Assembly: GCF_022811525.1 (NCBI RefSeq)
Contig: NZ_CP063982.1
Coordinates: forward strand, 1-32,000
Source: Orrella daihaiensis
GTDB lineage: Bacteria > Pseudomonadota > Gammaproteobacteria > Burkholderiales > Burkholderiaceae_B
Length of the DNA: 32,000 bases
Direction of reading: 5' to 3'
In this document: one piece after another, positions 3,002 through 32,000 of the stretch
Layout: every line of letters starts with the position of its first letter
How positions within the stretch are numbered: position 1 is the first letter of the stretch
The notes under the pieces: generated by a model
Seen by the model: the letters and a program-made list of their open reading frames with translations, nothing else
The model's database searches: none
Told to the model about the DNA's origin: nothing
Program-made: the position numbers and the translations under genes

Positions 3002-3323
3002 GTGCACTGAATTGTGTATGTAAGCGTCATGAAAATTGACGCTCAAGCAGCGCACACAACACGCTACAGCGCGCGTTTAGGCGCTAGTGGTTGTGCGGGT
3101 AGCGACGGCTGGCTAAAACAGCGCAAAGACGCATTTTATGCAGCGAGCGCAGCTGCTGCGGCATAAATACTGCGAGAAAAGGAAATACACAAAAGCTTAT
3201 CGCACCACGCTATGTCGTTGATTTGTGGAAGGCTTTTATGAGAGCAGATTCTGGTAGGAAAAACACAGAAATGAAAACACACTTATACGCATCAATTCAT
3301 TGATAGCACAGGAGCAAAACACA

Positions 3324-4094: not shown

Positions 4095-4101
4095 GCTAAA
4101 C
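4095..4101. repeat. Target-site duplication GCTAAAC (left copy) of IS copy A
   Basis: The identical 7-mer directly flanks both ends of the IS (4095-4101 and 5323-5329). Confidence 0.85.
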
Positions 4102-15942: not shown

Positions 15943-17166
15943 TGAAGTAGTTTCGATTTGATCTGACAATTAGGCCTTGCCAAGAGGTGGGGTTACCCAG
16001 TTTGATAGAGGTGCGAACTTTTATCAACTAGCGCGAAGCGCAATGGAGTAACCCCATGAGTAGTGTTAACCAAAATGTCATCAAACACAAGGTCGGCCTG
16101 TTGAACTTGGCTGCCGAGCTTGGAAACGTATCTCGCGCCTGCAAGGTGATGGGCTTTTCCCGAGACACCTTCTACCGATACCAAGCAGCCGTTGCTGAAG
16201 GCGGTGTAGAAGCTTTGCTCGATGCCAACCGCAAGAAGCCAAACTTGCGAAATCGTATTGAGCAAAGCATTGAATCTGCCGTGGTGGCCTTTGCCCTGGA
16301 GCAGCCCGCCTTTGGCCAAGTCCGTGTCTCTAACGAGCTGCGTAAGCGAGGTGTCTTTGTTTCGCCATCTGGCGTGAGGTCGGTTTGGTTACGTCATGAC
16401 CTCGAATCATTCAAGAAGCGCCTGATTTCGTTAGAGAAACATGTAGCAGCCACGGGCGAAGTCTTGACCGAAGCTCAGGTCGCAGCACTCGAGAAAAAGC
16501 AAGAAGACGACGTCGCCCACGGAGAGATTGAGACTGAGCACCCCGGTTACCTAGGCAGCCAAGATACGTTCTATGTGGGTACCATCAAGGGCGTGGGTCG
16601 TATCTACCAAAGAGCAGACCTTTGTCGATACCTACTCCAAGTGGGCGACTGCGAAGCTGTACTGCACCAAGACACCGATTACCGCTGCAGACCTATTGAA
16701 CGACCGTGTGCTGCCGTTCTTTGCAGAACAGCAGATGGGTGTTCTGAGGATCCTGACAGACCGTGGGACAGAATTCTGCGGCAAGGCCGAAACTCATGAT
16801 TACCAGCTGTACTTGGCGCTCAATGACATCGAGCACACCAAGACCAAGGTCATGCACCCTCAGACCAATGGCATCTGTGAACGGTTTCACAAGACGATTC
16901 TGCAGGAGTTTTATCAGGTCGCCTTCAGACGAAAAATCTATCGGTCCATCGAAGAGCTGCAGGCTGATCTGGACGAGTGGCTGCATTACTACAACCATGA
17001 CCGAACTCATCAAGGCAAGATGTGCTGTGGTCGAACACCGATGGAAACATTAATTGCTGGCAAACCAGCGTGGGAGGATAAAATCAACCAACTGAATCAC
17101 TGAACTTGATCTGACATACAGGCACCGCAAACTGGGGATCTGTCAGATCAAGTCGCGACTACTACA
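15943..17166 (+). mobile_element. IS481-family insertion sequence, copy B (1224 bp)
   Basis: Same terminal inverted repeats (15943-15968 and 17141-17166) and collinear with copy A. The only difference I can find is AGAG (16611-16614) in place of T (4770). Confidence 0.9.
16056..17103 (+). pseudogene. IS481-family DDE transposase, interrupted by a +1 frame change at about 16611-16614
   Basis: Same two overlapping ORFs as copy A (16056-16799 and 16573-17103). Here ...GRIYQ is followed by 4 extra nt (AGAG) before QTFVDTYSKW. Confidence 0.8.
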
Positions 17167-17749
17167 CATTAAGCCAGTCTCTGATAGGAACTGCCTCTCG
17201 AATCATAGCCATGGTAGGCGGCTCACCAGTCAGCGCAAGATACAGCAGCGCAAAGTCAACTTCCTGTGCTCGTAATTCAACCATCTCTGCCGAGCCAGAA
17301 AAGCTCTCCAAGACAGATGCTCGTGACAACCCGCCCGACAGTTGCGCTGCCCAATACGCCTGTCCCGCCTCATCAGGTTCGCGTCGCAGGGCGTTTTGAT
17401 AAAGAGACGTGATGAATTGCTCATCATCCATCTGCCCATACTTGGCTTCAAATTCATCAGCTTGGCTGAATTCCGTTGCAATAACGTCCAATGACACACC
17501 AGCACGATGAGCCTTTACCCAAAAGTCCAAGCCATCCGCCTCGGGGGCTCGATCAAACGTCACGAAATACAATTGTGCAATTGGCTGTACATGCACTTTG
17601 TATTCAACCGATGAGATGAATTGCTCGGTCATCTTGGCGGCACTGATACCGCCATACTCAATCATCTCGCGCCAGAATGCCAATCCTGATGCATCAGGCT
17701 CTCGACCCAGAATGTTTTGATAGAGCTGGCTGACAAATGACGCAGACAT
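17162..17749 (-). pseudogene. N-terminal 195-aa fragment (three DUF4214-type repeats) of the IS-disrupted adhesin-type gene
   Basis: Repeats LYQNILGREPDASGLAFWREMI, LYFVTFDRAPEADGLDFWVKAH and LYQNALRREPDEAGQAYWAAQL. The frame ends ...IRDWLNV, then hits a TAG supplied by the IS right end (17162-17164). Confidence 0.85.
17167..17173. repeat. Target-site duplication CATTAAG (right copy) of IS copy B
   Basis: See 15936-15942. Confidence 0.85.
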
Positions 17750-18074: not shown

Positions 18075-19118
18075 CTAAAAACCAAAGAAGTTCAGTGGAC
18101 TTATTTCATAGTCCTCACCGACACCCCGCAGAATGATCAATGAATCATTACCGCCGAAGCTGCGGTGATCCTCGCGATTGAGAATGACCCATGTATCACC
18201 GGAATCTGCCGCGTTAGGGACGACATAGATATAAGGAATTTTTTCTGCGCGAGGATCATCAAAACCCTTGCTAAACACCTCATTCACTCGGGACTCAAGC
18301 TCGTAAAAACTTTCTGGCCCAGTCTCTTCAATCCAAACAAATCGCTCCATAATCTCAAAGGGACTGCCAGGCCCCCAAAAGGACAAGTCCGATGTCAATC
18401 TATCTTCGTCTGCGTTAAAGTCGATGATGACATCGGCTGATTCGAGTGTTGTGCCACTATCACCAGGCTCGAACCTAAATGTATCCGCACCTTCATTTCC
18501 AATCAGTACGTCCGCTCCCGCATGACCAATAATCCTGTCATTGCTACTACCACCAATTAGCGTATCAGAGCCTGCCGTGCCCTCAATGTGTTGCGGTAAG
18601 GAAATGCTCATATTTGTGAGAGCCGCTTTCACCCTAAGCACCTGCGACGGATCAGTGGTCACCCCATCAAGAGCGCCGTCCACCAACTGCTGATCATTGC
18701 TAGCTAGCGTCAATGCCACGTACTTTGCAACCTCAACCTTGTTGCGCACAATTGCGGTGTCATTCGTATCAACATCGTCACCACCAGCAAAGGCTGCCTC
18801 TATCTTGCCAACGGCAACCTCATAAAAAGTGTGACCTTGATCGATTTTGTTTAGCCAGTAATCAAGTCCCCGTGGATCAGCTGCCCGATCTAGTGCGTTT
18901 TGATAAAAACGGCGGATCGCTTCGGAGGCACTTAAGTCACCATAGTGCGACTGATATTCGTCACTCTTTGAAAACCCGACCGCCAGGTCATGAATAGTCG
19001 CTCCGTTACTGAGTGCTTGTACCCAGTGATTCATCCCTTCCGCCTCAGGGGCTCGACCAAAGAATACGATGTAGAGTTCAGCGACTTGGTTTTGATATGT
19101 TTGCAAGTCGGACGACAT
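18075..19118 (-). CDS. DUF4214-domain protein with a few RTX repeats and a T1SS-type C-terminal domain (347 aa from ATG 19118; the ORF is open to 19166)
   Basis: MSSDLQTYQNQVAELYIVFFGRAPEAEGMNHWVQAL aligns with the N-termini of the 6402-10031 and 19454-20557 products, which favours the 19118 start (GGAG upstream). RTX repeats GGSSNDRIIGHAGADVLIGNEGADTF. C-terminus GDTWVILNREDHRSFGGNDSLIILRGV. Confidence 0.85.
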   Translation of the reverse strand: MSSDLQTYQNQVAELYIVFFGRAPEAEGMNHWVQALSNGATIHDLAVGFSKSDEYQSHYGDLSASEAIRRFYQNALDRAADPRGLDYWLNKIDQGHTFYEVAVGKIEAAFAGGDDVDTNDTAIVRNKVEVAKYVALTLASNDQQLVDGALDGVTTDPSQVLRVKAALTNMSISLPQHIEGTAGSDTLIGGSSNDRIIGHAGADVLIGNEGADTFRFEPGDSGTTLESADVIIDFNADEDRLTSDLSFWGPGSPFEIMERFVWIEETGPESFYELESRVNEVFSKGFDDPRAEKIPYIYVVPNAADSGDTWVILNREDHRSFGGNDSLIILRGVGEDYEISPLNFFGF

Positions 19119-19453
19119 TGCCTTGTTCTCCATTTTCTGACTGTCCATTCGGATGGTTGAACTCACCTACACAAAAACAACTCATCACAAATAACACACT
19201 ATCACCGACCTAATCCTTCCACGTATGCTGAGGCGTACCAAATTCGGTAAACACTCGATTCACCCCTTGAAGCGTTTCTGCTTGATCCATTTGGTTAAGT
19301 CAATGTTTCCCAGACTCTCTTGATCGGAATAGATGTCGTTCACTCTATTTATCTGCTGTAAAGCGATCTACTTTTTGGGGAAGTAAGGATGCCTATCGAG
19401 GCGCCGACACACTAAGAAAAGGGGCACCAAATCGATAGGTAATCTCTTTGTGG

Positions 19454-20557
19454 TCACAGCATCAAATCAGGCTCAAGTTTGAAATGAAAATTGCTCAGCT
19501 CAAAACTATTTTGAACACCCTGAAGAATGACTAACGAATCTTCCGCATCAAAACTGGCTCGATCTCCACGATTAATCACCACCCAGGTGTCACCCGAGCC
19601 AAGCGCGTCCGCTACCGCATAAACAAAAGGAAATCCAACTAGTTGATGTTCTTTAGCTTCTTGAAAAGCCGTCGAAAATTTATCAGCTACTTTTTTGGCA
19701 AACAACTCAAAACCATCCTCTTGCAAAGCTCGATCTAAGCCGTGGTCTTGCTCTATCCATACGTATTCATCAACACGTACGTTGCTAGAAACGAGGTCGT
19801 GAATCTCAAGGAAGTTAGTCCCCAAAGAAAAATCCATAATGACATCAGCTGTTTGCAATGTGATACCACTGTCACCGGCTGCGAGAACAAATATATCGTT
19901 GCCCAAGCCGCCACTCAAAGTATCGGCCCCGTGAGCACCTATTAGCCTATCATTGCCAATACCACCTAACAACACATTAGGACCTGACGTTCCCTCGAGT
20001 ATTTTTGGTTGAGGATCGGCCTGTGCATAAAGCCAGTCTTCTGTGGTCCGAACAGAGGCAGGGTCTGCCGAAACGTTGTCAAACGCTCGACCGACTATAT
20101 GAGTTCCGCTGGCACCCAACTCCAATGCAACATACTTCGCAATCTCGACTTTATTACGCACAATCGCAGTATCTTCGGGATGCGTATTATCCCCCCCAAC
20201 AAATGCTGTCTCGATCTTGCCAACGGCAATCTCGGCAAACGTGTGGCCCTGTTTAAGTTTATTGAGCCAGAACTCTCTTCCTTCGGCATCCGGTTCCCGA
20301 TCGAGTGCGTTCTTATAAAAACGACGAATAGCTTGACTCACATCGGCATCACCATATGTGCTTGTAGATAGATCACCGTACATCTCTCGATATTCGGAAC
20401 TTCTTGCAAACTCATCTGCCAAGTCATTCATTGTGACAGCGCCATGGCTTAAAGCGCGCACCCAGTGGCTCATACCCTCAGCGTCAGGCGCACGCCCAAA
20501 AAATACGATGTATAGCTCAGCGACTTGGTTCTGATAGGTCTCTAACGGTGTTGCCAT
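19454..20557 (-). CDS. DUF4214-domain protein with a few RTX repeats and a T1SS-type C-terminal domain (367 aa); paralog of 18075-19118
   Basis: MATPLETYQNQVAELYIVFFGRAPDAEGMSHWVRAL; FYKNALDREPDAEGREFWLNKL; GGIGNDRLIGAHGADTLSGGLGNDIF; GDTWVVINRGDRASFDAEDSLVILQGV. Confidence 0.88.
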   Translation of the reverse strand: MATPLETYQNQVAELYIVFFGRAPDAEGMSHWVRALSHGAVTMNDLADEFARSSEYREMYGDLSTSTYGDADVSQAIRRFYKNALDREPDAEGREFWLNKLKQGHTFAEIAVGKIETAFVGGDNTHPEDTAIVRNKVEIAKYVALELGASGTHIVGRAFDNVSADPASVRTTEDWLYAQADPQPKILEGTSGPNVLLGGIGNDRLIGAHGADTLSGGLGNDIFVLAAGDSGITLQTADVIMDFSLGTNFLEIHDLVSSNVRVDEYVWIEQDHGLDRALQEDGFELFAKKVADKFSTAFQEAKEHQLVGFPFVYAVADALGSGDTWVVINRGDRASFDAEDSLVILQGVQNSFELSNFHFKLEPDLML

Positions 20558-20894: not shown

Positions 20895-22187
20895 TTAAGC
20901 CGCCAGCCAACTCTGCGAGTCGCCCAGGAGAGCAATATCGGCTGGGGTGACCATGAATGCCGCGACCGCCATATCACCACCACTACCAGCATAATTCACA
21001 TCATTGCGTGCGATTTCTCCACTGACCTTTTGATGTGCCTCTTCTGACTGGGCAATGATGGCCGCAATTTCAGCGCGCGTGAGCAAGCCGGCTTCGTAGG
21101 ACTCAGCCCAGTAGTTTTGTGCTGCTTGTTCAGGCTCTCGTTCAAGCACATTCACATAGAGTTTGCGCAAGTAATCAATATCCGATTCCGTGGCATCGGT
21201 CTTGAGTTCGTATTCGTATGAATCAATAAAATCCTGCGCAATGACCGCCAGTGACACTTGGCTATCGAGTATGCCCTTCCAATAGGCCAGCCCTTGTGCA
21301 TCTGGTGTGCGGCCCAATAGTGCTTGATAGAGAGCAAACAAATCATTCACACTGGCCAGATCATCATCTTGATAGACCTGCCCGACGGAATACAAATTGT
21401 CTTCAGACAAACCAAGCGCACCATTTGCGCCCGAATCACCATCTGGTCCATGGTGATAGATGCCGCTATCTCCACCCGGGCCGCCTTGACCTGCTTGCCC
21501 TCCGGCACCACCGGTACCGGCGTTCGATTCATAGGTGACCTTGTCTAGCCTTAATATGCCGGCATTAAAAAGTGCCCCAACGCCCGCACCACCTTCCCCA
21601 CCGTTGCCACCGTCACCGCCATGACCACCGTGCCACATTGTGCTGTAACCACCAATGCCACCTGCACCACCATTTCCACCGCCACCACCTCGAGCAATGT
21701 TGCCAATGAATTCAACGTTATAGAGAGAAACATTGGCACCGGCTGTGATCGCTAGCCCTGCTCCCAGGGCACTACCACCCACACCACCATTCTCGCCATT
21801 ACCACCACTGCCACCGCCACTGAACACGTGGTGACTGCCTGTACTGCCTTGGCCTCCATTCTCACCATGGACACCAATCAATTCACCACCGTAAAACGTG
21901 AGATTACCTATAAAGACACTCCCATCAAAAAGCGGCATGCCCAAGAGCCCGCGCCCATCAATCAGCATCAAGCCATTGCCATCACCCATGATTGAATGGC
22001 CCAGACCGTTGATGGTGAGGGAATCGCCCGACCGGACACCAAACTCAAAGTAATGAGTCGATCTAGACCAAACAGCTCCAGTTAGGTCGATATCAGTCGT
22101 GATGTAGATCGTGTCACTTTCAGCGTTCTCTGCTTGCTGAAAGAGTGCGTCTGCGAGCTCTTGTGCATTGTTGACGTAGTAATCCAA
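20895..22187 (-). CDS. Glycine-rich beta-helix-like repeat protein with C-terminal DUF4214-type repeats (430 aa)
   Basis: TTG start 8 nt after the stop of the upstream gene, with AGGA in between. The N-terminal half has GG(A/N)GG runs alternating with segments such as GAGLAITAGANVSLYNVEFIGNIARGGGGGNGG and GVGALFNAGILRLDKVTYESNAGTGGAGG, the pattern of parallel beta-helix / Pmp-like repeats. The C-terminal half has LYQALLGRTPDAQGLAYWKGIL and LYVNVLEREPEQAAQNYWAESY. Confidence 0.8.
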   Translation of the reverse strand: MDYYVNNAQELADALFQQAENAESDTIYITTDIDLTGAVWSRSTHYFEFGVRSGDSLTINGLGHSIMGDGNGLMLIDGRGLLGMPLFDGSVFIGNLTFYGGELIGVHGENGGQGSTGSHHVFSGGGSGGNGENGGVGGSALGAGLAITAGANVSLYNVEFIGNIARGGGGGNGGAGGIGGYSTMWHGGHGGDGGNGGEGGAGVGALFNAGILRLDKVTYESNAGTGGAGGQAGQGGPGGDSGIYHHGPDGDSGANGALGLSEDNLYSVGQVYQDDDLASVNDLFALYQALLGRTPDAQGLAYWKGILDSQVSLAVIAQDFIDSYEYELKTDATESDIDYLRKLYVNVLEREPEQAAQNYWAESYEAGLLTRAEIAAIIAQSEEAHQKVSGEIARNDVNYAGSGGDMAVAAFMVTPADIALLGDSQSWLAA

Positions 22188-22195
22188 AACGTCCT

Positions 22196-24760
22196 CTATG
22201 AGTAAAGATCGCCAATCGAGTATGACGAAAACCGACTCATCACAAATAGATCATCCATTCCTACCTGACCAGTCGATGAGCTCTGTGACTCTGCCGAGGT
22301 GAGTAGGCTGATGATGAGCTCGCCCTCGGTTGCTTCATGCACCACCAACGCTTCGACCCAGTGGCTAAGTCCCTCGGTATCAGGGGCTCGGTCGAGGATC
22401 GCTTCGTAGAGCTCTTCGACCAGTTGTTCTTCTGATGGTGTGCCATACAGTTGTTTGAACTCTGTCGATTCGGCTAGCGCTTGTGCGACGTCTTGTAATG
22501 TCGCACCTTGGCTCATCTGTTCAACCCAGTACGTTAAGCCTTCAACATCAGGGCTACGACCCAACACCTCTTCATACAAATGATCTAACTCCTGATACGC
22601 CACACCGCTTGCCATCTGATCATCGGCTTTGATTAGCTCGGCATCGGAGAAAGTAATTCTCTCCACCCCTCTGACAATGATCCGGCCCTCGGGGCCATAG
22701 AGCGTGGCTTGTAGCTGCCCCTCAAAGGACTCTTGGGTGATCACATAGTCTGCCATGGCATTCGATAGCTTGACCGTGTCTTGACCCCCATTGCCTTGAA
22801 TCACCCAGTTACCCACGATGACTTCAAACACATTGTCTTGGGCGTTACCGGTGACCGTATTGTTCAGTCCGTTCTCGGTTAGACGGATATGTTCAATATC
22901 ATCGGGTAGTGCCACGTCTTGTTGGTGACCGTGGATGAGAAGATCAATATTGGCAGTACCTAGTCCTGTAGCCAGTGCACCGTGTTGCTCAACCGTGATG
23001 ACGTTACCCCCGGTGCTGTGGGTGGTCGTTGACGTCACAGCCGCTTCGGTATCTGACCCATCCCAGTAGAACTGAATGAGCTCTGACGCAAGTGACACGT
23101 TGCCTGCTGCATCCACTTGTCTGACCTGCACTTGATTCAGTCCTGACTGGGCTTCAAACGTATCGCTCCACGTCTGACCACCATCAATCGAGAACTCAAG
23201 TGTGGCTCCGTCTTCCACCTTGCCAAACGAGAGCTTGCCCGTGCTCGTACGAGGAATCGTATCGTTGCTATCTGCTGGTACAGCGGCTTTAAATGCGGGT
23301 GCAGCCAATGGAGCTGCAACCGCCACCCCATCAACCACCACCTCAGGTGCCTCAGGCGCTGTCGTGTCCAATACAAAGGTGATGGCCCGAGTAGCGGCTG
23401 AGGCCTGACCCAGTACATTGACCTGGCGAACATATAGGGTATTACTGCCTTCCTGGGCCGTAAACGTCTCGGACCACGTGGTGCCATCAGAGGAATATTC
23501 CACCCTTGCCTGAGGCCACACGCCAGAGACATCCAACTCAAACTTGCCCGTGATCTTGTCACCGGCGACTTGACCGTTCTCGTCTAACACCTGCACCCCT
23601 GGCACCGGTGTGACAATCTCGGGCAGGTTCGCCGCCGTGATGAACTCACTGAAACTACCCTGTACATCGCCCATCTGCAGGTTGTTCTCGCCACCAGTGC
23701 CAATCACCGTACGGCCCCGCAAGTCCGGCAAAGCAAATGTGGTGACGCCGTCGCCACCAAATGCCGTTCCAAGCAAGGAATACAAAGCGTCGTTATTCGC
23801 GATAGAAAGCAGTTGGCCTTGCGCAAGTACCCAACCATCTGGGATTCGCTGCCCGGCAAACAACATCACTTGACCGAGCATTGGGGTGTAATCGTCGTAA
23901 TACCAATAACCACCCCTTGTATTAATGATGTAGTTCATTCCCAGAGAAGGTTGCATCGTATTGACTAACTGACCTTGTGGCTCAGCAATGTCAACGTTGT
24001 TAAGGCTCAGCGATGAAGCACCTAGTTTTTGACCGGTATAAATCTGCTGACCATTGGACGCCAATCCTGTTCCGACCGGCACATGATTGCGCAAGTCTGG
24101 CAAAGCAAACGTATTAACGCCATCACCACCATATGCTCTGCCTAAAATTGAATAGAGCACTGGGTTGTCTCTGACACTCAATAGTCGACCGTCGGCCGGT
24201 AAAAAACCATCAGGTACTCCACCTTGAGTGGGTGCTGCGTAGGGGTACACCATCCCGATCGTGCTCAAGCTTGGTAGCCCGCCATTTGCTGGATAAAGGC
24301 CCGTGGTCTGAATGACATATTGCATGCCAAGCCCGTACTGCTGATTAGCAATAGGGTCTGAGAGACCACCCAACGCCGATGGCAACTGTCCAGGGGAAAT
24401 AAATTCAGTATTGTCTGGAGTACCCTGCGTGGTTCCCCAGAGAGTGGGGCCCGTGCCTTGTTTCAGATACAGAGGGGCTGCCCCTTGTAAATCAGGCAAT
24501 CGGTAGGTAGTCGACTGACTGCCGCCGTAGGTATTACCTAACAGCGCATACACCGCTTGATTGCTATTGATGTCTATCGTCTGACCATTGGCTTGTAAAA
24601 GTGTTTTGACACGCGAGGGATCAAACGCTGTCTGATAAATGAAACCCAGAAAGCTTGCATCATTCCCTCCCCCGCCATAAAAACTCGGGAACGGCCCTTG
24701 AAACACAAACGACTGTGGAAGTGCCAGAGCTGGTTGGCCTAAATTAACCGGGGTCGTCAC
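22196..24760 (-). CDS. Triple phage-tail-collar-domain protein with two Ig-like domains and C-terminal DUF4214 repeats (paralog 1, 854 aa)
   Basis: GTG start with AGGAGA 6 nt upstream. Collar (MdpB-like) signatures occur three times: LQANGQTIDINSNQAVYALLGNTYGGSQSTTYRLPDLQG; LPADGRLLSVRDNPVLYSILGRAYGGDGVNTFALPDLRNHVPVG; LAQGQLLSIANNDALYSLLGTAFGGDGVTTFALPDLRGRTVIG. Ig-like modules end in DTTAPEAPEV and DAAGNVS. C-terminal DUF4214 repeats: LYEEVLGRSPDVEGLTYWVEQM and LYEAILDRAPDTEGLSHWVEAL. Confidence 0.9.
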   Translation of the reverse strand: MTTPVNLGQPALALPQSFVFQGPFPSFYGGGGNDASFLGFIYQTAFDPSRVKTLLQANGQTIDINSNQAVYALLGNTYGGSQSTTYRLPDLQGAAPLYLKQGTGPTLWGTTQGTPDNTEFISPGQLPSALGGLSDPIANQQYGLGMQYVIQTTGLYPANGGLPSLSTIGMVYPYAAPTQGGVPDGFLPADGRLLSVRDNPVLYSILGRAYGGDGVNTFALPDLRNHVPVGTGLASNGQQIYTGQKLGASSLSLNNVDIAEPQGQLVNTMQPSLGMNYIINTRGGYWYYDDYTPMLGQVMLFAGQRIPDGWVLAQGQLLSIANNDALYSLLGTAFGGDGVTTFALPDLRGRTVIGTGGENNLQMGDVQGSFSEFITAANLPEIVTPVPGVQVLDENGQVAGDKITGKFELDVSGVWPQARVEYSSDGTTWSETFTAQEGSNTLYVRQVNVLGQASAATRAITFVLDTTAPEAPEVVVDGVAVAAPLAAPAFKAAVPADSNDTIPRTSTGKLSFGKVEDGATLEFSIDGGQTWSDTFEAQSGLNQVQVRQVDAAGNVSLASELIQFYWDGSDTEAAVTSTTTHSTGGNVITVEQHGALATGLGTANIDLLIHGHQQDVALPDDIEHIRLTENGLNNTVTGNAQDNVFEVIVGNWVIQGNGGQDTVKLSNAMADYVITQESFEGQLQATLYGPEGRIIVRGVERITFSDAELIKADDQMASGVAYQELDHLYEEVLGRSPDVEGLTYWVEQMSQGATLQDVAQALAESTEFKQLYGTPSEEQLVEELYEAILDRAPDTEGLSHWVEALVVHEATEGELIISLLTSAESQSSSTGQVGMDDLFVMSRFSSYSIGDLYS

Positions 24761-24893
24761 CGAAGCTCTCCTGACAAAGGGTGGTAAGACATTAGAGGAT
24801 TGCCCTCAAACATACCGATAGGTACGAGCAGTACCATGTTTTAAGGATTTTTAGCGGTTTTAGCAACAAAAAATTGTGACCAATACAAGTAAC

Positions 24894-27416
24894 TTATCCC
24901 GGCACAAACAACCCATTACCGCTGACTTGGTTCGTCGACGCACTCTGCGACTCTGCCGAGGTGAGTAGGCTGATGATGAGCTCACCCTCGGTTGCCTCAT
25001 GCACCACCAGCGCTTCGGTCCAGTAGGCAAGCCCTTCAGTGTCAGGGGCTCTGTTTAATATGGCTTCGTAGAGTTCCTCGACCAGTTGTTCTTCTGACGG
25101 TGTGCCGTACAGCTGCTTGAACTCTGTAGACTCGGCTAGCGCTTGAGCGACGTCTTGTAATGTCGCTCCTTGGTTCATCTGCTCAACCCAGTACGTTAAT
25201 CCTTCAGCATCAGGGCTGCGTCCCAAGACTTCTTCGTACAGATGATCGATTTCGGTGATGTCTGTGCCAGTGGTTTTGATGAGGGTGACATCACTGAACT
25301 CGATCGTCTCAACGTCTCTGACAATGATCCGACCCTCGGGGCCGTAGAGCGTGGCTTGGAGTTGCCCGTTAAGTTGACCGTTATGGGACTCTTGAGTGAT
25401 CACGTAGTCTGCGAGAGCGTTCGATAGCTTGACCGTATCCTGACCCCCACTGCCTTCAATCACCCAGTTACCGACGATGACTTCAAACACGTTGTCTTGG
25501 GCGTTACCGGTGACCGTGTTGTTCAGTCCATTCTCAGTTAAGCGGATGTGTTCAATGTCATCGGGTAGTGCCACATCTTGTTGGTGACCGTGGATGAGAA
25601 GATCAATATTGGCAGTACCTAGTCCTGTAGCCAGTGCACCGTGTTGCTCAACCGTGATGAGATTGCCACCGGTGCTGTGGGTGGTCGTTGACGTCACAGC
25701 CGCTTCGGTATCTGACCCATCCCAGTAGAACTGAATCAGCTCTGAGGCAGGTGACACATTGCCAGCCATATCCACTTGTCTGACCTGCACCTGATTCAGT
25801 CCAGGTTGAGCTTCAAACGTATCGCTCCACGTCTGACCACCATCAATTGAGAACTCCAGTATGGCACCGTCTTCGACCTTGCCAAACGAGAGCTTGCCCG
25901 TGCTGGTGCGAGGAATCGTATCGTTGCTATCTGCTGGTACAGCGGCTTTAAATGCGGGTGCTGCCAATGGAGCTGCAACCGCCACCCCATCAACCACCAC
26001 CTCAGGTGCCTCAGGGGCTGTCGTGTCCAATACAAAGGTGATGGCCCGGGTAGCGGCTGAGGCCTGACCCAGTACATTGATCTGGCGTACATACAGGGTA
26101 TTACTGCCTTCCTGGGCCGCAAACGTCTCGGACCATGTCGTGCCGTCTGTGGAATACTCCACCCGCGCCTGAGGCCACACGCCCGCAATATCCAACTCTA
26201 ACTTGCCGGTGACCTTATTACCACTGATCTGGCCCGGCTGCACAACGAGTTGTACGCCCGGCACAATAACCGGGAAATCGACACTTCCCTCCGGTAATGC
26301 GCTGACCGCGGACCCTTGTTTATCACCGATTTGCAAGTTGTTCACACCACCTGTTCCGATGATTGCTCGTCCACTTAGGTTAGGCAGGGCAAACGTCACC
26401 TCACCATCACCACCGAAATGAGTGCCCAATAATGAAAACAAAGCCTGATGCTGGGCGATTGCCAGAACCTGGCCTTGCGCCTGCATCCAGCCTCCAGGCA
26501 GGTACTGACCCGCATACAGTGTCACCTGACCGAGCATCGGGTAATTGGTGTCGTAGGCCTGATATAGACCATCGGTATTGATGATGTAACGCATCCCGAG
26601 TGAAGGTGGTTGTACATTCACTTGCCCACTACCAACAACGGGTAAGTTATGGTCCGTGATCACAGTTTGGGCTGCCCCAAGCACACTACCCGCAAGCAAC
26701 TCATCACCGCCTGGTATCAATCCCATTCCAACTGGGACGCGGTTACGCAAATCGGGTAATGCAAAGGTGTTCACACCATCGCCACCATAAGTTGTGCCCA
26801 CTACAGCGGCCAAGGCTTTGTATTCATCGATGTTCAACAAACGGCCATCTGCTGGTAAAAACCCAGCTGGCATCCGCTCAGATTCAACCGGTCCTGCAAA
26901 TGGATACACCATGCCTATGGTCGTCATGGTGGGAGAGTTACCAGATGGGAATGTTCCGCTGACCTGAATCAGGTACTGCATCGTCAATGCTTCTTGCTGA
27001 TTGTCAATCGGTATGGATCTACCACCAAGCTCCGGTGGCATTTGCCACTGGTTCAACGTTATCTGATTACCGGGGTGGCCAAGTTCGGCTCCCCAGATAG
27101 GATGAGCCTGACCTTCAAAAGTCTGTGTTTTGACGAAGGGCATAGACCCTTGCAGGTCTGGCAACTTGGGGTTACCGTCCCAGTACGTATTGCCTAGAAG
27201 GCTATACAACGGGGTAGCCGCATTCAAAAACTGACCTTGAGCGGGCGCGACTGTTTGAATCCGCGTTGGTTCAAACGCGAGATTCAGTATGAAGCCAAGC
27301 GATGCCGCTGTACCATAACCATCCGGTCCACCCTGGAAGTTCGGAAACATGCCACCGGTCACGATCACCTGTGGCATTGCCACACTGGGCATTGCAATCG
27401 AAATTGGCTCTGACAC
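24894..27416 (-). CDS. Triple phage-tail-collar-domain / Ig-like / DUF4214 protein (paralog 2, 840 aa)
   Basis: GTG start with GGGAGAG 5 nt upstream. Same architecture as paralog 1. The first collar unit is degenerate (LYSLLGNTYWDGNPKLPDLQG). The second and third are canonical (LPADGRLLNIDEYKALAAVVGTTYGGDGVNTFALPDLRNRVPVG; QAQGQVLAIAQHQALFSLLGTHFGGDGEVTFALPNLSGRAIIG). Confidence 0.9.
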   Translation of the reverse strand: MSEPISIAMPSVAMPQVIVTGGMFPNFQGGPDGYGTAASLGFILNLAFEPTRIQTVAPAQGQFLNAATPLYSLLGNTYWDGNPKLPDLQGSMPFVKTQTFEGQAHPIWGAELGHPGNQITLNQWQMPPELGGRSIPIDNQQEALTMQYLIQVSGTFPSGNSPTMTTIGMVYPFAGPVESERMPAGFLPADGRLLNIDEYKALAAVVGTTYGGDGVNTFALPDLRNRVPVGMGLIPGGDELLAGSVLGAAQTVITDHNLPVVGSGQVNVQPPSLGMRYIINTDGLYQAYDTNYPMLGQVTLYAGQYLPGGWMQAQGQVLAIAQHQALFSLLGTHFGGDGEVTFALPNLSGRAIIGTGGVNNLQIGDKQGSAVSALPEGSVDFPVIVPGVQLVVQPGQISGNKVTGKLELDIAGVWPQARVEYSTDGTTWSETFAAQEGSNTLYVRQINVLGQASAATRAITFVLDTTAPEAPEVVVDGVAVAAPLAAPAFKAAVPADSNDTIPRTSTGKLSFGKVEDGAILEFSIDGGQTWSDTFEAQPGLNQVQVRQVDMAGNVSPASELIQFYWDGSDTEAAVTSTTTHSTGGNLITVEQHGALATGLGTANIDLLIHGHQQDVALPDDIEHIRLTENGLNNTVTGNAQDNVFEVIVGNWVIEGSGGQDTVKLSNALADYVITQESHNGQLNGQLQATLYGPEGRIIVRDVETIEFSDVTLIKTTGTDITEIDHLYEEVLGRSPDAEGLTYWVEQMNQGATLQDVAQALAESTEFKQLYGTPSEEQLVEELYEAILNRAPDTEGLAYWTEALVVHEATEGELIISLLTSAESQSASTNQVSGNGLFVPG

Positions 27417-27486
27417 TGGATCTCTCCCGTTATATCTTACTATTTATTCTGCGCACTCGGTCAGGCTCGCTCTGACCAATCATTCA

Positions 27487-30024
27487 TCAACCCAACACAA
27501 ACAACCCACCAGTGCCGACCTGTGTCGTTGACATGCCTTGCGATTCTGCTGACATCAGCAGGCTGACAATCAACTCGCCCTCGGTTGCCTCATGCACCAC
27601 CAGTGCTTCAGTCCAGTAGGCAAGCCCTTGCGCGTCAGGGGATCTATTTAAGATGGCTTCATAGAGTTCTTCTACGAGTTGTTCCTCTGACGGTGTGCCG
27701 TACAGTTGTTTGAACTCTGTCGATTCGGCTAGCGCTTGCGCGACGTCTTGTAATGTCGCTCCTTGGTTCATCTGGTTCACCCAGTAGGTCAAGCCTTCCA
27801 GATCTGGCATGCGTCCCAGTACTTCCTCATACAGATGATCAATCTGCGCAATGTCTGTGCCGTCTGTTTTGAGGAGCGTGGCATCACTGAACTCGATCGT
27901 CTCAATGTCTCTGACAATGATCCTGCCCTCTGGACCATAGAGCGTGGCTTGTAGCTGCCCCTCAAAGGACTCTTGGGTGATCACATAGTCTGCCATGGCA
28001 TTCGATAGCGTGACCGTGTCTTGACCCCCATTGCCTTGAATCACCCAGTTACCCACGATGACTTCAAACACATTGTCTTGGGCGTTACCGGTGACCGTAT
28101 TGTTCAGTCCGTTCTCGGTTAGACGGATATGTTCAATATCATCGGGTAGTGCCACGTCTTGTTGGTGACCGTGGATGAGAAGATCAATATTGGCAGTACC
28201 TAGTCCTGTGGCCAGTGCTCCGTGTTGCTCAACCGTGATGAGATTGCCACCGGTGCTATGCATTGTTGTGGACGTCACAGCCGCGTCGGTATCTGACCCG
28301 TCCCAGTAGAACTGAATCATGTCTGAGGCAGGTGACACATTGCCAGCCATATCCACTTGTCTGACCTGCACCTGATTCAGTCCAGGTTGAGCTTCAAACG
28401 TATCGCTCCACGTCTGACCACCATCAATTGAGAACTCCAGTATGGCACCGTCTTCGACCTTGCCAAACGAGAGCTTGCCGGTGGCAGTGCGGGGAATCGT
28501 TGCATCATCAGAGGGTGTAGCGGGAACGCTGAAAGCGCTGGGAACAGCTGCCTTAAACATCGGGGCGAGCTCAACAATATTGCCGATGGTCAAGTTGGTT
28601 AGATTGATCTCGGGTACTTCTGGAGATGTTGTGTCCAGCACAAAGTTGATCGGGCTACTGGCTTCAGACGGCAAATTGAATAGCGCCACTTGCCGTACAT
28701 ACAATGAGTTGTTGCCTTCTTGTGCCTCGTAAGTCCCAGACCACGATGTGCCATTGGTCGAGTACTCCACCCGCGCTTGCGGCCAGACTCCCGAGATGTC
28801 AAGCTCAAACTGGCCGGTGATCTTATTGCCTATTGCGGATCCATTGGCGTTTAACAACTGAACGCCAGGTACAGGAACCGTGATTTCAGGGAAATTGTTC
28901 AACGACACGTACTGTTCTGCGCTGCCCTGCGTTTCACCGAGTTGCAGATTGTCTGACCCCCCGGTACCTACGACGGTGCGGCCGCGCAAATCTGGCAGGC
29001 CGAAAGTCGTGGCGCCATCTCCGCCGAACGTGTTGCCGAGCAACGAATATAAATCCTTATTGCCACTGATAGATAACAACTGACCTTGTGCCAGGGACCA
29101 GCCGCTCGGGAGATAAGAGCCCGCATACAACATGACTTGGCCTAGGAGGGGTGTGGCGCCGTTTTCCGGTAGTCCTGTGGTCGAACCCTCGGTGCTGATT
29201 ACGTAATGCATGCCCAAAGAGGGCTGCATAACTGGGATAGTCCAGCCATCCGGGTCATTGGGCGCCAATAAATTTGTGCTGGTTACACCGAGTTTCTCAC
29301 CAAGCCGGACATCCGTGCCAGAAGAAGAGACTCCGACGGGCACTCGGTTGCGCAAATCGGGCAATGCAAATGTAGAAAACCCATCCCCGCCGTAGGTGGT
29401 CCCAAGCACGGCGTGAAGTGAAGGGAAATCCGAGATCTGTAGCAAACTGCCATCAGCCGGTAAAAAGCCATTGGGCAGACCACCACGAGAAGGTGAGGCA
29501 AACGGGTAAACCATGCCGATGGTATTAAGCGAAGGCGAAGAACCCGCCGGAAACATGCCCTCAGCTTGAATCACATACTGCATACCCAAACCAAACTGTT
29601 TCAGATCTATCGGTGAAGACCAACCACCGAGCGTAGTGGGTAATTGGTGCAAACCAAGCTCAACCTCAGTGTTCGACCCCCCCTGGGTCTGCCCCCACTG
29701 AGCCCCGCCACCGCTCGCACTCAAATACAGTGCTGCTGCACCTTCTAGATTCGGCAAAGAGAAATTGATCATCCCGTTACCGCCGTATGTGCTCCCGAGT
29801 AGCGAGAACAAATCGACGTTGGACACGATGCTCATCAAGCTTCCATCGGCTGGCAACAGTTGTGGCTCTCGCGTCGAATTGATATCAAACGCAGTTGTCA
29901 CCATAAAACCGATGCTTCCGCCTGGATCCGGAGATCCGCCACCGAAGCTCGGATAAAGCCCGCTGGCAATAATTGACTGCGGCAGCGCAATAGAAGGTTG
30001 TGCAAGATTGACTGGCGTTGCCAC
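27487..30024 (-). CDS. Triple phage-tail-collar-domain / Ig-like / DUF4214 protein (paralog 3, 845 aa)
   Basis: GTG start with AAGGAG 7 nt upstream. Collar units: LPADGSLMSIVSNVDLFSLLGSTYGGNGMINFSLPNLEG; LPADGSLLQISDFPSLHAVLGTTYGGDGFSTFALPDLRNRVPVG; LAQGQLLSISGNKDLYSLLGNTFGGDGATTFGLPDLRGRTVVG. Confidence 0.9.
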   Translation of the reverse strand: MATPVNLAQPSIALPQSIIASGLYPSFGGGSPDPGGSIGFMVTTAFDINSTREPQLLPADGSLMSIVSNVDLFSLLGSTYGGNGMINFSLPNLEGAAALYLSASGGGAQWGQTQGGSNTEVELGLHQLPTTLGGWSSPIDLKQFGLGMQYVIQAEGMFPAGSSPSLNTIGMVYPFASPSRGGLPNGFLPADGSLLQISDFPSLHAVLGTTYGGDGFSTFALPDLRNRVPVGVSSSGTDVRLGEKLGVTSTNLLAPNDPDGWTIPVMQPSLGMHYVISTEGSTTGLPENGATPLLGQVMLYAGSYLPSGWSLAQGQLLSISGNKDLYSLLGNTFGGDGATTFGLPDLRGRTVVGTGGSDNLQLGETQGSAEQYVSLNNFPEITVPVPGVQLLNANGSAIGNKITGQFELDISGVWPQARVEYSTNGTSWSGTYEAQEGNNSLYVRQVALFNLPSEASSPINFVLDTTSPEVPEINLTNLTIGNIVELAPMFKAAVPSAFSVPATPSDDATIPRTATGKLSFGKVEDGAILEFSIDGGQTWSDTFEAQPGLNQVQVRQVDMAGNVSPASDMIQFYWDGSDTDAAVTSTTMHSTGGNLITVEQHGALATGLGTANIDLLIHGHQQDVALPDDIEHIRLTENGLNNTVTGNAQDNVFEVIVGNWVIQGNGGQDTVTLSNAMADYVITQESFEGQLQATLYGPEGRIIVRDIETIEFSDATLLKTDGTDIAQIDHLYEEVLGRMPDLEGLTYWVNQMNQGATLQDVAQALAESTEFKQLYGTPSEEQLVEELYEAILNRSPDAQGLAYWTEALVVHEATEGELIVSLLMSAESQGMSTTQVGTGGLFVLG

Positions 30025-30157
30025 GGCTCATCTCCTTTTTAGTTCGATTGCTTTTTGTGACAACTCGCCACAGATCACTGCGCTTTAACTATACGATCAA
30101 TCTGTGACCACTTGGTTCAATAAATTGTGATTGATGTAAAGCACGCGATGTAAGCAA

Positions 30158-30192
30158 ATGCCCAGTTTCCATCGAAACTGGGCATGTTTTTT
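30158..30192 (+). other. Perfect 12-bp stem-loop followed by T6 (terminator-like in plus-strand orientation) between collar paralogs 4 and 3
   Basis: ATGCCCAGTTTC-catc-GAAACTGGGCAT-g-TTTTTT. On the minus (coding) strand the hairpin sits 46 nt after the paralog-4 stop but is not followed by a T run. Confidence 0.5.
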
Positions 30193-30230
30193 ACACGGAC
30201 ATCACGTCAATTACTCACATGACTAATAGC

Positions 30231-32000
30231 CTATCCCAGCACGAACAAACCAATCGCACCAGCCTGGTGCATTGACGCACTCTGCGACTCTGCGGAAGTG
30301 AGCAGGCTGACAATCAACTCACCCTCTGTGGCCCCATGCACCACCAACGCTTCGGTCCAGTAAGCAAGTCCTTGCGCGTCAGGAGATCGATCGAGAATCG
30401 CTTCGTAGAGTTCTTCTACGAGTTGTTCCTCTGACGGTGTGCCGTACAGTTGTTTGAACTCTGTAGATTCGGCTAGCGCTTGGGCGACGTCTTGTAATGT
30501 CGCTCCTTGGTTCATCTGCTCAACCCAGTACGTTAATCCTTCAGCATCAGGGCTACGACCCAACACCTCTTCATACAAATGATCGATTTCGGTGATGTCT
30601 GTGCCGTCAGTTTTGAGGAGGGTGACATCACTGAACTCGATCGTCTCAACGTCTCTGACAATGATCCGACCCTCGGGGCCGTAGAGCGTGGCTTGGAGTT
30701 GCCCGTTAAGTTGACCGTTATGGGACTCTTGAGTGATCACGTAGTCTGCGAGAGCGTTCGATAGCTTGACCGTATCCTGACCCCCACTGCCTTCAATCAC
30801 CCAGTTACCGACGATGACTTCAAACACGTTGTCTTGGGCGTTACCGCTGACGGTATTGTTTAGTCCGTTCTCGGTTAGACGGATGTGTTCAATGTCATCG
30901 GGTAGCGTCACGTCTTGCTGGTGACCGTGGATGAGAAGATCAATCGAATCCGTCCCTAGGCCTGTAGCCAGTGCCCCGTGTTGCTCAACCGTGATGACGT
31001 TACCCCCGGTGCTGTGGGTGGTCGTTGACGTCACAGCCGCTTCGGTATCTGACCCATCCCAGTAGAACTGAATCAGCTCTGAGGCAGGTGACACATTGCC
31101 AGCCATATCCACTTGTCTGACCTGCACCTGATTCAGTCCAGGTTGAGCTTCAAACGTATCGCTCCACGTCTGACCACCATCAATTGAGAACTCCAGTATG
31201 GCACCGTCTTCGACCTTGCCAAACGAGAGCTTGCCCGTGCTGGTGCGAGGAATCGTATCGTTGCTATCTGCTGGTACAGCGGCTTTAAATGCGGGTGCTG
31301 CCACCGCTACTCCATCAATTACCACCTCAGGTGCCTCAGGGGCTGTCGTGTCCAATACAAAGGTGATGGCCCGAGTAGCGGCTGAGGCCTGACCCAGTAC
31401 ATTGACCTGGCGTAAATATAAAGTGTTAGTGCCTTCCTGGGCCGTAAACGTCTCAGACCACGTGGTGCCATCTGTGGAATATTCCACCCGAGCCTGCGGC
31501 CATACACCTGAGACATCCAACTCAAACTTGCCCGTGATCTTGTCACCGGCGACTTGACCGTTCTCGTCTAACACCTGCACTCCTGGTACCGGTGTCACAA
31601 TCTCGGGCAGGTTTGCAGCCGTAATGTACTCACTAAAGCTGCCCTGTGTGTCACCAATCTGCAGGTTGTTCACGCCACCGGTGCCCACAATCGTACGACC
31701 CTGCAAGTCGGGGAGCGCAAATGTGGTGACGCCGTCGCCACCAAAACGGGTGCCAAGTAGAGAATATAGCGATGACGTGTCGTCGGTAATCTCTATCATC
31801 TGACCTTTCGCAAAGGTCCACTCATCCGGTATGTGTGCCCCTGCGTACAGGAGCACTTGAGCCATCATTGGTTTACCTTCATTGAATGTGCCATATGGGC
31901 CTTCGAGGATAATCACATAGTTCATACCCAAGGACGGCTGCATGACCGAAACCGCAGAGTCACCGGCGATATCAGGCTGCAGCAGGCTTAACGGCGCCAC
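30231..32000 (-). CDS. Triple phage-tail-collar-domain / Ig-like / DUF4214 protein (paralog 4, partial; N-terminus lies beyond the window end)
   Basis: The frame is open to the window edge. The visible part starts at the end of collar unit 2 (QPSLGMNYVIILEG), followed by collar unit 3 (FAKGQMIEITDDTSSLYSLLGTRFGGDGVTTFALPDLQGRTIVG), Ig-like modules and DUF4214 repeats. Confidence 0.9.
   Translation of the reverse strand: MAPLSLLQPDIAGDSAVSVMQPSLGMNYVIILEGPYGTFNEGKPMMAQVLLYAGAHIPDEWTFAKGQMIEITDDTSSLYSLLGTRFGGDGVTTFALPDLQGRTIVGTGGVNNLQIGDTQGSFSEYITAANLPEIVTPVPGVQVLDENGQVAGDKITGKFELDVSGVWPQARVEYSTDGTTWSETFTAQEGTNTLYLRQVNVLGQASAATRAITFVLDTTAPEAPEVVIDGVAVAAPAFKAAVPADSNDTIPRTSTGKLSFGKVEDGAILEFSIDGGQTWSDTFEAQPGLNQVQVRQVDMAGNVSPASELIQFYWDGSDTEAAVTSTTTHSTGGNVITVEQHGALATGLGTDSIDLLIHGHQQDVTLPDDIEHIRLTENGLNNTVSGNAQDNVFEVIVGNWVIEGSGGQDTVKLSNALADYVITQESHNGQLNGQLQATLYGPEGRIIVRDVETIEFSDVTLLKTDGTDITEIDHLYEEVLGRSPDAEGLTYWVEQMNQGATLQDVAQALAESTEFKQLYGTPSEEQLVEELYEAILDRSPDAQGLAYWTEALVVHGATEGELIVSLLTSAESQSASMHQAGAIGLFVLG

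Follow-up and report, generated by a model that had tools for sequence, protein, structure and literature searches.

The first 32,000 nucleotides of the Orrella daihaiensis contig NZ_CP063982.1 (hereafter the window) raise the question of how genes lying side by side can be nearly identical over one part of their length and strongly divergent over the other. An earlier, sequence-only reading had attributed the similarity to repeated gene conversion stopping before the N-terminal heads, and the divergence to diversifying selection on a binding surface. The answer that we favour, with a probability of about three in four, is that of a tandem array of secreted surface proteins whose bodies are kept alike by conversion and whose heads are old, exchangeable types.

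A tandem array of multidomain paralogs

Four tandem paralogs are found on the minus strand of the window. P1 (22196..24760, 854 aa), P2 (24894..27416, 840 aa) and P3 (27487..30024, 845 aa) have the same architecture according to ORF and Pfam analysis: three phage-tail 'Collar' repeats, two Ig-like domains, a degenerate RTX-like beta-roll, two DUF4214 domains and, at the C-terminus, a conserved tail, which is 12 residues longer in P1 than in the other paralogs. P4 is cut by the window end, leaving only its 3' 1770 nt (30231..32000) visible, with collars 1 and 2 beyond; the complete protein counts 838 aa (P0002/UOD50392.1). A fifth full paralog (P0121, UOD50394.1) is located outside the window, and the genome thus contains at least five side-by-side copies. 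Since the nine other homologous loci examined are all single copy, the Orrella array is exceptional. A glycine-rich gene with two DUF4214 domains (20895..22187, minus strand) lies 8 nt downstream of P1 and is probably a member of the same surface-protein gene cluster. Besides the paralogs, six DUF4214 genes are present within the window, four of them with RTX repeats, as are an integrase and IS copies.

The AlphaFold model of P2 reached a pLDDT of 90 and a model of the head alone a pLDDT of 93.8 with a pTM of 0.92; in these models, the three Collar repeats of one chain are predicted to fold into a single compact unit. By sequence, the Collar domains are relatives of phage fibres, among them the short tail fibre gp12 of T4. 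Comparison of the whole head with known structures gave no significant single-chain match, so that its putative pseudo-trimeric nature is suggested by the number of repeats, by what is known of gp12 and by the compact fold predicted with confidence. In structural comparisons, the body matched type I secreted adhesins (SiiE and an ice-binding adhesin) and the beta-roll of lipases secreted by type I systems (T1SS), while DUF4214 matched the phycobilisome-linker fold. Pfam detected no canonical RTX repeats in the paralogs.

The bodies are a mosaic evolving in concert

The identical blocks described in the sequence-only reading were all exact to the base. On the minus strand, P1 22695-22969 equals P3 27935-28209 at 274 of 275 positions, with a single mismatch (22770 T vs 28010 G) and an exact core of 199 nt (22771-22969 = 28011-28209). 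P2 and P4 share a maximal match of 229/229 nt (25281-25509 = 30618-30846, minus strand), which includes the 4-codon NGQL duplication common to both, and the indel grouping P2 and P4 (ESHNGQLNGQLQ) against P1 and P3 (ES----FEGQLQ) was found as described. The longest exact tract, of 298 ungapped nt, also joins P2 and P4 (25669-25966 = 31006-31303, minus strand); nested in it is a three-way identity of 158 nt with P3 (25741-25898 = 28322-28479 = 31078-31235), a stretch across which P1 diverges. For similar pairs, the longest exact word shared in the body ranged from 53 to 298 nt.

The 129 parsimony-informative sites were distributed 37/41/51 over the three possible groupings and were strongly clustered, 23 successive 13|24 sites forming one run in alignment columns 1935-2208. 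The longest concordant run beat all 2000 site permutations for each of the six pairs (p<=0.0005) and a PHI-like incompatibility statistic gave z = -13, indicating block structure with non-random partner switching, not uniform divergence. The mosaic consists of incompatible tracts of ~60-300 nt, identical even at synonymous sites while the overall dS of the body is 0.3-0.5. Purifying selection alone, without recombination, might be thought to keep the bodies alike, the body being the more conserved half in some comparisons between organisms such as m06/m07. This explanation is contradicted by the spatial clustering of the three incompatible groupings and by the tract-wise dS, with identity reaching synonymous sites in tracts whose neighbours have substantial dS, and orthologous bodies elsewhere (P1 vs m10) are synonymously saturated; its probability is close to negligible.

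Homogenisation is neither as extensive nor as uniform as had been proposed: the near-identity assigned to the C-terminal two-thirds covers ~55% of the protein (residues ~373-840) and is interrupted. The first Ig-like domain of P3 (28534..28857, minus strand) is an unconverted segment with 46-70% nucleotide identity to the paralogs and at most 59% protein identity to any homolog examined. Residues 701-750 of P1 (22511..22660, minus strand) are closer to m05 (82% identity) and to m09/m10 (74-76%) than to the genomic paralogs (67-71%), and are a relic of P1's own lineage; its extended tail (22199-22234) is likewise of the m09/m10 type. The same residues of P3 are 96% identical to m03.

These relic segments also bear on a possible assembly or polishing artefact, in which short reads mis-mapped among near-identical repeats would have generated chimeric consensus blocks. 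The species is sampled by one genome, from the single assembly of which the mosaic was read, and the annotation is unstable: P1 is recorded as 854 aa in RefSeq (WP_243478793.1) and as 492 aa, from an internal Met, in GenBank (UOD51494.1), the lengths given for the fifth paralog are 540 and 834 aa, and no entry among the protein-database search hits matched P3, despite its intact ORF. However, all reading frames are intact, the tracts are long and clean with sharp partner switches and without scattered mixed variants, and polishing error would not yield matches to specific external lineages. We regard such an artefact as highly improbable.

In neighbour-joining trees of the second Ig-like domain and middle region, the Orrella copies were monophyletic in 99/100 bootstraps, as compared with 0/100 for collars 1 and 2, and the segment identity matrix agrees with concerted evolution of the body. 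The mosaic could nevertheless have been inherited if the five genes had been acquired separately by horizontal transfer from already mosaic donors, with no exchange inside this genome; exchange of heads between organisms is clear in the family, and the integrase and IS copies would fit with such acquisitions. Exact identity over 158-298 nt among different in-genome pairs, including the three-way block, argues against it, as do the monophyly of the bodies and the closest external homologs, which are at most 86% protein-identical in the tract segments. This origin is very unlikely. The data are best explained by repeated short-patch gene conversion, as first proposed: homologous recombination between direct repeats, possibly RecA-dependent, would keep the bodies similar within the genome, and donor and recipient pairs changing along the gene would leave the mosaic.

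Heads are old and are replaced in related organisms

The third collar domain represents a transition zone (minus strand; P1 23591..24019, P2 26250-26675, P3 28858-29286, P4 31575-32000). That conversion stops before the heads is roughly correct, but the boundary is staggered, lying at codon ~335-345 for P1/P4, ~405-420 for P1/P2/P4 and ~515 for P3. Within this collar (23591-23791 / 31575-31778), the identity between P1 and P4 rises to 80-96%, from ~23791 / 31778 downstream. Collars 1 and 2 (minus strand; P1 24020..24760, P2 26676-27416, P3 29287-30024) are never converted. Nucleotide identity between paralogs is there 35-67%, with longest shared exact words of 10-12 nt; over all heads the figure is 10-13 nt, with the exception of 29 nt in collar 3 of P1/P4. 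Because collars 1 and 2, which share no exact word above 13 nt, offer homologous recombination no starting point, missing homology suffices to explain why conversion stops, and selection is unnecessary as an explanation.

The five heads of this genome differ about as much as those of 14 other organisms. The head of P0121 is unique, 43-66% identical to all others, and is joined to a mosaic body, while that of P1 is 68-79% identical to relatives from other organisms and grouped with the metagenome homologs m09 and m10 in 100/100 bootstraps. P1 and m10 are ~70% identical evenly across head and body, which dates the P1 head lineage to this organismal split or earlier.

Conversely, the genes might have duplicated recently, their heads then being driven apart by ongoing diversifying selection while conversion fixed the rest. 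Head variation is indeed concentrated in the loops following the collar motifs (residues 16-60, 91-120, 226-270 and 286-300 in P2 numbering), the motifs themselves being conserved; in the most variable window of m06/m07 (codons 101-150), dN was 0.93 vs a dS of 1.45, and a codon Z-test was positive for tail-collar paralogs of Solibacter usitatus (PMC3174227). Yet synonymous sites of the heads are saturated and dN/dS was ~0.16-0.23 where computable (a gene average, which at such dS is insensitive to positive selection limited to a few loop residues), and the unsaturated head pair m08/m14 gave a dN/dS of 0.15 for a dS of 0.31. In addition, the Orrella heads are never monophyletic, the P1 type is shared with relatives, and P1 and m10 diverge evenly over head and body. 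The picture of a variable head on a constant scaffold holds, but its attribution to diversifying selection was supported by none of the tests applied and is unlikely.

The search for swapped heads across related loci was positive. In m06/m07, the flanks are 87-89% identical, whereas no DNA-level alignment is possible over the first 300-345 codons, where dS is mostly saturated and amino-acid identity is 27-62%. In m08/m14, the heads are 90% identical vs 77% for the flanks and 75% for the body. These comparisons indicate that related organisms replace heads at otherwise similar loci. We read the heads as old, conserved and exchangeable cassette types rather than recently diversified copies: discrete types under purifying selection would be swapped wholesale, with the downstream junction in or shortly after the third collar. 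Their variety looks like a long-standing polymorphism moved by horizontal exchange, rather than fast amino-acid change.

Secretion context and comparable systems

P2 is 100% identical to UOD50391.1, labelled 'tail fiber protein [Orrella daihaiensis]'. A role as phage tail fibre is improbable, since homologs adjoin type I secretion operons. Such genes lie directly upstream in six homologous loci (m03, m05, m06, m07, m08 and m14), as a full outer-membrane-factor/ABC-transporter/AprE-like operon in m05-m08 and as its visible ABC and AprE-like part in the cut contigs of m03 and m14. Given that single-copy homologs usually follow a type I secretion operon directly, the Orrella paralogs are probably secreted surface proteins, exported by a putative type I route; the window itself contains no type I secretion genes because the array runs past its end. 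Several head types on a shared body would equip one cell with multiple binding specificities, possibly for glycans, on a common export and anchoring scaffold.

The array adds a new case of segmental concerted evolution, which is well known as a process, from a protein family that is itself uncharacterised. In the outer-membrane adhesin paralogs babA/babB and homA/homB of Helicobacter pylori, a 3' segment clusters by strain through intragenomic gene conversion and another segment by allele type (PMC2795765, with reference to Pride & Blaser 2002 and Santoyo & Romero 2005). The body and head trees of Orrella give the same result. However, the proteins are unrelated and the H. pylori genes dispersed, whereas at least five Orrella copies lie in tandem, what stays constant in them is the C-terminal half for export and anchoring of a protein probably secreted by a type I system, and their conversion tracts form a multi-partner mosaic.

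The Campylobacter fetus sap genes also encode a family of type I secreted surface-layer proteins in which clustered homologs recombine, a constant LPS-binding region being joined to a variable remainder. There the constant part is N-terminal, homologs occur in either orientation, and an invertible promoter drives the expression of only a single copy. A SapC-family gene in related loci recalls this locus and, together with the tandem family of surface proteins and its common constant part, raises the idea of programmed variation, whether by silent cassettes behind one expressed copy, by an invertase shufflon or by a diversity-generating retroelement. In Orrella, however, the constant part lies at the C-terminus, each of the visible copies has a full-length ORF that starts with GTG and is preceded by a Shine-Dalgarno-like sequence of its own, all copies are co-oriented, and inverted repeats >=40 nt are absent from the window. 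Neither a reverse transcriptase nor an invertase was found near the array, and head differences are spread along the whole sequence, not limited to adenine-templated positions. Programmed variation thus has very little probability.

In Pseudomonas putida KT2440, the RTX-DUF4214 protein Psh ('phage shielding') is exported by a type I system and reported to bind or sit on the LPS O-antigen (bioRxiv 10.64898/2026.09.02.748959). It resembles the Orrella paralogs in its beta-roll followed by a C-terminal DUF4214 and in the link to an AprD/E/F-type system, and DUF4214 may, by analogy, anchor them to lipopolysaccharide. Unlike them, Psh has neither a collar head nor Ig domains, no tandem converting family is reported for it, and the Orrella beta-roll differs in its lack of canonical RTX repeats by Pfam. 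Phage fibres such as T4 gp12 and the cyanophage A-1(L) fibre (8kec) share the Collar motif at the sequence level, but the common stretch is limited to collar regions of ~60-100 residues. Receptor-binding parts of phages are typically exchanged as modules on a conserved shaft, and each chain of the homotrimeric fibre contributes one collar. The Orrella proteins carry three collars in a single chain, and no phage structural genes lie within the window. The HxH motif of the wider family consensus is absent from the Orrella paralogs. Downstream in locus L009, the same response-regulator and 7TMR-DISM histidine-kinase pair is present as at 10288-12925 of the window.

The collar gene array and its products

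Four triple-collar genes lie in tandem on the minus strand: P1 (22196-24760, 854 aa), P2 (24894-27416, 840 aa), P3 (27487-30024, 845 aa) and P4, which runs from 30231 to beyond position 32000, is cut at the window end and encodes 838 aa in full. The four ORFs are co-oriented and separated by gaps of 133, 70 and 206 nt. Every visible gene is preceded by a Shine-Dalgarno-like sequence; GTG serves as start codon wherever a start can be seen (24758-24760, 27414-27416 and 30022-30024, three of three), with a GGAG-type ribosome-binding site 6-9 nt before it. A hairpin with a perfect 12-bp stem (30158-30185) is present in the 206-nt P4-P3 gap, about 45 nt past the P4 stop on the minus strand, and could function as a terminator or in transcript processing within the array. 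P2 and P4 correspond to GenBank entries UOD50391 (100% identical, Orrella daihaiensis, placed in Alcaligenaceae) and UOD50392, and a fifth full-length paralog, P5 (UOD50394; protein P0121, 834 aa), is found two gene slots further on. The homologous loci examined elsewhere were all single copy (9 of 9); the Orrella array is an expansion. Its annotation in public records is inconsistent (22196-24760 and 27487-30024; proteins P0018 and P0012): GenBank starts P1 at an internal Met and so gives it 492 aa, RefSeq gives 854 aa, and no protein record for P3 was present among the search hits despite its intact ORF. The fifth paralog has two RefSeq versions, WP_243480117.1 (540 aa) and WP_369810202.1 (834 aa). 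A literature search retrieved no publication describing the O. daihaiensis genome or how it was assembled.

Pfam analysis assigned three N-terminal "Phage Tail Collar" repeats (hereafter the head), weak Ig-like matches in mid-protein and two C-terminal DUF4214 domains per paralog (E about 1e-27). Whole-protein E-values for the Collar profile PF07484 were 5.7e-54 (P1), 1.1e-44 (P2) and 1.1e-53 (P3), with two or three matched stretches each, three repeats being seen in the alignment; this significant match places the proteins in the PF07484/COG4675 "microcystin-dependent protein" group. Modelled on its own, the head forms a single compact unit (pLDDT 93.8, pTM 0.92). Its collars resemble T4 gp12 and other fibres at the sequence level; a Foldseek search of the whole head against the PDB gave no significant whole-chain structural match. 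Since phage collar proteins are homotrimers and three repeats are carried here on each chain, the modelled head may reasonably be regarded as a single-chain pseudo-trimer. In the wider collar family, a consensus PxHxH motif follows collars 2 and 3; it is missing from the Orrella paralogs and their close homologs, for instance around P2 residues ~250-270 and ~370-385 (26607-26669 and 26262-26309). In T4 gp12, the histidines of HxH serve as ligands for a metal located on the trimer axis.

The remainder of the protein, or body, was modelled with AlphaFold on P2 (pLDDT 90) and resembles adhesins that are type I secreted (SiiE and the ice-binding adhesin), as well as GhpA, a grappling-hook protein, and the T1SS lipases in their beta-roll, while the modelled DUF4214 resembles phycobilisome-linker domains. 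No HemolysinCabind match (PF00353, the canonical RTX nonapeptide repeats) was obtained with Pfam in the paralogs. Weak beta-roll resemblances were found to the lipases 3a6z/2qua and to NF051884 (E 2.4e-4), and the C-terminal ending ...GLFV(L/V/P)G is conserved. Beta-roll-like strands occupy residues 606-715 of the model, before the C-terminal DUF4214, an order similar to that of Psh, an RTX-DUF4214 protein of P. putida that is reported in a 2026 preprint to be exported by type I secretion, to bind the LPS O-antigen and to mask phage receptors (bioRxiv 10.64898/2026.09.02.748959). By analogy with Psh, the Orrella paralogs might also bind the O-antigen and shield the cell from phages.

Type I secretion genes were found directly upstream of the homologs at six loci, with a complete outer-membrane-factor/ABC/AprE-like operon at four of them; at the remaining two, the contigs are cut and show part of the operon. 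The homologous loci frequently have further DUF4214 proteins encoded nearby, and some also a SapC-family gene and glycosyltransferases. In the window itself, which ends within the array, no such linkage is visible. Downstream of the homolog in one metagenome locus (L009) lies the response-regulator and 7TMR-DISM kinase pair that also occupies window positions 10288-12925, so that the window locus looks orthologous to L009; from this synteny, a type I secretion operon is predicted probably to lie beyond position 32000. An alternative is that the genes encode a prophage tail fibre, as their name "tail fiber protein" implies. Only the collar motif stands behind this name and no phage module is present here: the genes next to the array in the window encode DUF4214/RTX proteins and a two-component system or belong to IS copies, the homologs follow type I secretion operons, and PHROGs returned no matches among the window neighbours checked, tail families matching only the collar stretches of the paralogs. 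The paralogs are thus probably mislabelled and are putative type I secreted surface proteins. This corrects the annotation of an unstudied family in which a head of three collars is paired with DUF4214, whose link to LPS binding and the shielding of cells from phages is very recent.

Gene conversion in the protein bodies

The nucleotide-identical blocks that the sequence-only reading had listed among P1-P4 proved right to the base, and the P2/P4 identity runs further, over 298 ungapped nt. In a sliding-window analysis of the codon alignment, collars 1-2 showed 35-67% nucleotide identity; the rest of the gene is a patchwork of 46% to 100% identity in which the best partner switches repeatedly. 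The 129 parsimony-informative sites are divided 37:41:51 across the three possible groupings and are clustered in runs, one consisting of 23 consecutive sites that join P1 with P3 and P2 with P4, preceded by a stretch of mostly P1/P4 and P2/P3 sites. A GENECONV-style permutation of polymorphic sites was significant for six of six pairs (p<=0.0005) and a PHI-like statistic gave z = -13, both results persisting in the body alone. Rate variation along the gene cannot yield clustered, mutually incompatible groupings, and recombination is therefore required. The exact tracts (68-298 nt) stand against a body-wide dS of 0.29-0.54, so that the identity includes synonymous sites. Pure purifying selection, a mosaic that was simply inherited and an assembly artefact all fit less well.

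The homogenised segment, which had been put at the C-terminal two-thirds of the protein, in fact covers ~55% of it. Unconverted islands remain in the first Ig-like domain of P3 (28534-28857) and in residues 701-750 and the C-terminal tail of P1, while P1 and P4 already share 80-96% identity inside the third collar. The insertion specific to P2 and P4 (25330-25341 region in P2 and its equivalent in P4) is a tandem NGQL duplication, giving ESHNGQLNGQLQ. As it is absent from P1, P3, P5 and all outgroup homologs, it represents a derived character of two non-adjacent copies, a distribution consistent with spread through conversion.

The five Orrella proteins were then compared with 17 homologs that share their architecture and come from metagenomes or other genomes. 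Over the second Ig-like domain and the middle region, the Orrella paralogs were monophyletic in 99 of 100 bootstraps, with 90-100% identity to one another versus 55-86% to 14 other homologs. For collars 1-2 they were never monophyletic (0/100): P1 clustered with two foreign homologs, m09 and m10 (100/100), to which it is 68-72% identical in this region, versus 44-59% to the paralogs of its own genome. Relic segments that keep the signal of their lineage were also apparent at residues 701-750, where P1 is like m05/m09/m10 and P3 is 96% identical to another homolog, m03. In the fifth paralog, the head is unlike any other, and stretches resembling P1 alternate in the body with ones resembling P2/P4. 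A search of species-representative genome contigs with P1, and then with a body-only alignment, found no relatives, this collection apparently lacking the source genome.

Taken together, the clustered incompatible sites, the identity at synonymous sites and the monophyly of the bodies, set against its absence in the heads, make gene conversion among the paralogs, as first proposed from the sequence, well supported. Such a pattern is what conversion classically leaves behind when it homogenises a single segment of gene lineages that are older and distinct; the same has been described in H. pylori for babA/babB (Pride and Blaser) and homA/homB (others) (PMC2795765). The process itself is not new; what is new are these instances of it, in this family, in a tandem mosaic with several partners and in head swaps between organisms.

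Origin and exchange of the heads

In collars 1-2, the longest exact words shared between paralogs are only 10-12 nt, and in collar 3 they do not exceed 13 nt except for P1/P4 (29 nt); similar pairs of body segments share words of 53-298 nt. RecA-mediated recombination requires ~20-30 bp of identity, and the heads are therefore mechanically shielded from conversion. The boundary is staggered among pairs, as expected for independent tracts, and selection is not needed to explain it. The array thus offers a clean natural example of how homology-dependent recombination sets apart, within one gene, a module that is homogenised from another that stays protected and diverse.

The sequence-only reading had attributed the divergent heads to diversifying selection on a binding surface. 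This is not supported: the dS of the heads is saturated, which leaves NG86 dN/dS largely uninformative, and the ratio is 0.16-0.23 where computable (0.11-0.19 in the body). An unsaturated substitute was provided by the heads of two syntenic homologs, m08 and m14, which have a dN/dS of 0.15; judged on these sequences, an established head appears to evolve under purifying selection. Mean pairwise identity among the five Orrella heads follows, window by window, that among 14 homologs elsewhere, with conserved motifs and variable loops alike in both sets. Because dS is saturated and diversity within the genome tracks that across organisms, the heads are ancient types and not recently diversified copies, and recent positive selection also fits less well. 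In place of diversifying selection, a better reading is that the head types are ancient and conserved, can be exchanged horizontally and are carried on a freely recombining body.

Two pairs of syntenic single-copy loci were informative on such exchange. The flanks of m06 and m07 share 87-89% DNA identity, while their first 300-345 codons are unalignable as DNA (27-62% amino-acid identity, dS mostly saturated); beyond this point identity leaps to 90-100%. The opposite pattern was seen for m08 and m14, with 77% identity in the flanks, 75% in the body (dS about 1.0) and 90% in the head (dS 0.31). These opposite contrasts indicate that head and body histories differ across the family; the junction falls in or just past the third collar, as in Orrella. 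Replacement of heads among related organisms suggests that they set an ecologically relevant specificity. In L009 (8370-8537) and a second metagenome locus, L010 (4860-5096), short collar-gene 3' (DUF4214) relics, which match the corresponding end of the complete gene at 83-85% identity, sit just before the present collar gene, after the membrane-fusion gene for type I secretion. They probably derive from an upstream paralog that has been lost, which suggests that copies were gained and lost in the past.

Possible role of the array and its genomic surroundings

One tentative interpretation, to which we give roughly one chance in four, is that the body acts as "portable homology" for capturing, stacking and reshuffling foreign receptor-binding heads, leading to a modular, phage-fibre-derived repertoire of pseudo-trimeric heads, each on a single chain, exported by type I secretion and displayed on the LPS of the cell itself via DUF4214. 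If so, the resulting coat could serve in adhesion between cells or to particles, or as a phage-receptor shield of multiple specificity, and the array would be a bacterial counterpart of cassette exchange in phage tail fibres. Programmed variation fits less well than exchangeable heads on a recombining body. Unlike C. fetus sap and Neisseria pilE/pilS, which combine one expression site with silent or partial copies or use an invertible promoter with inverted homologs, each Orrella copy is a complete ORF that has a ribosome-binding site to itself, and cassette antigenic variation was rejected. A silent-cassette or invertible-promoter system, and likewise an invertase or shufflon, were discarded as all copies are on one strand and no inverted repeats of at least 40 nt are present in the window. 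A diversity-generating retroelement, which would call for a reverse transcriptase close by and a pair of template and variable repeats, was also considered and rejected: Pfam found no reverse transcriptase in the ORFs scanned, and the only long repeats in the window are the paralogs, RTX repeats and IS copies.

The window starts with a gene for a tyrosine integrase that carries an Arm DNA-binding domain (1-1206), followed by a second, shorter integrase-family ORF (3300-3890), and the two suggest a genomic-island border; no tRNA gene that could mark such a border is present in the window. Two direct IS copies of ~1.2 kb (4099-5322 and 15940-17166), each with an HTH ORF and an rve integrase-core ORF, are 99.6% identical with one 3-nt indel. 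They bracket ~10.6 kb, in an arrangement like that of a composite transposon, which encode two large RTX proteins, one of 1209 aa with DUF4214 and one of 981 aa with Big_13, together with the response regulator and its 7TMR-DISM histidine kinase. Besides the paralogs, six window genes encode DUF4214, four of them with RTX repeats, and a dense cluster of such genes is found at 6402-10031, 17162-17749, 18075-19166, 19454-20557 and 20895-22187. Three clustered members with RTX repeats have in common a DUF4214 region at the 5' end, seen as repeat families D8 and D11, that is only 63-76% identical, and they are thus paralogous but not recently converted.
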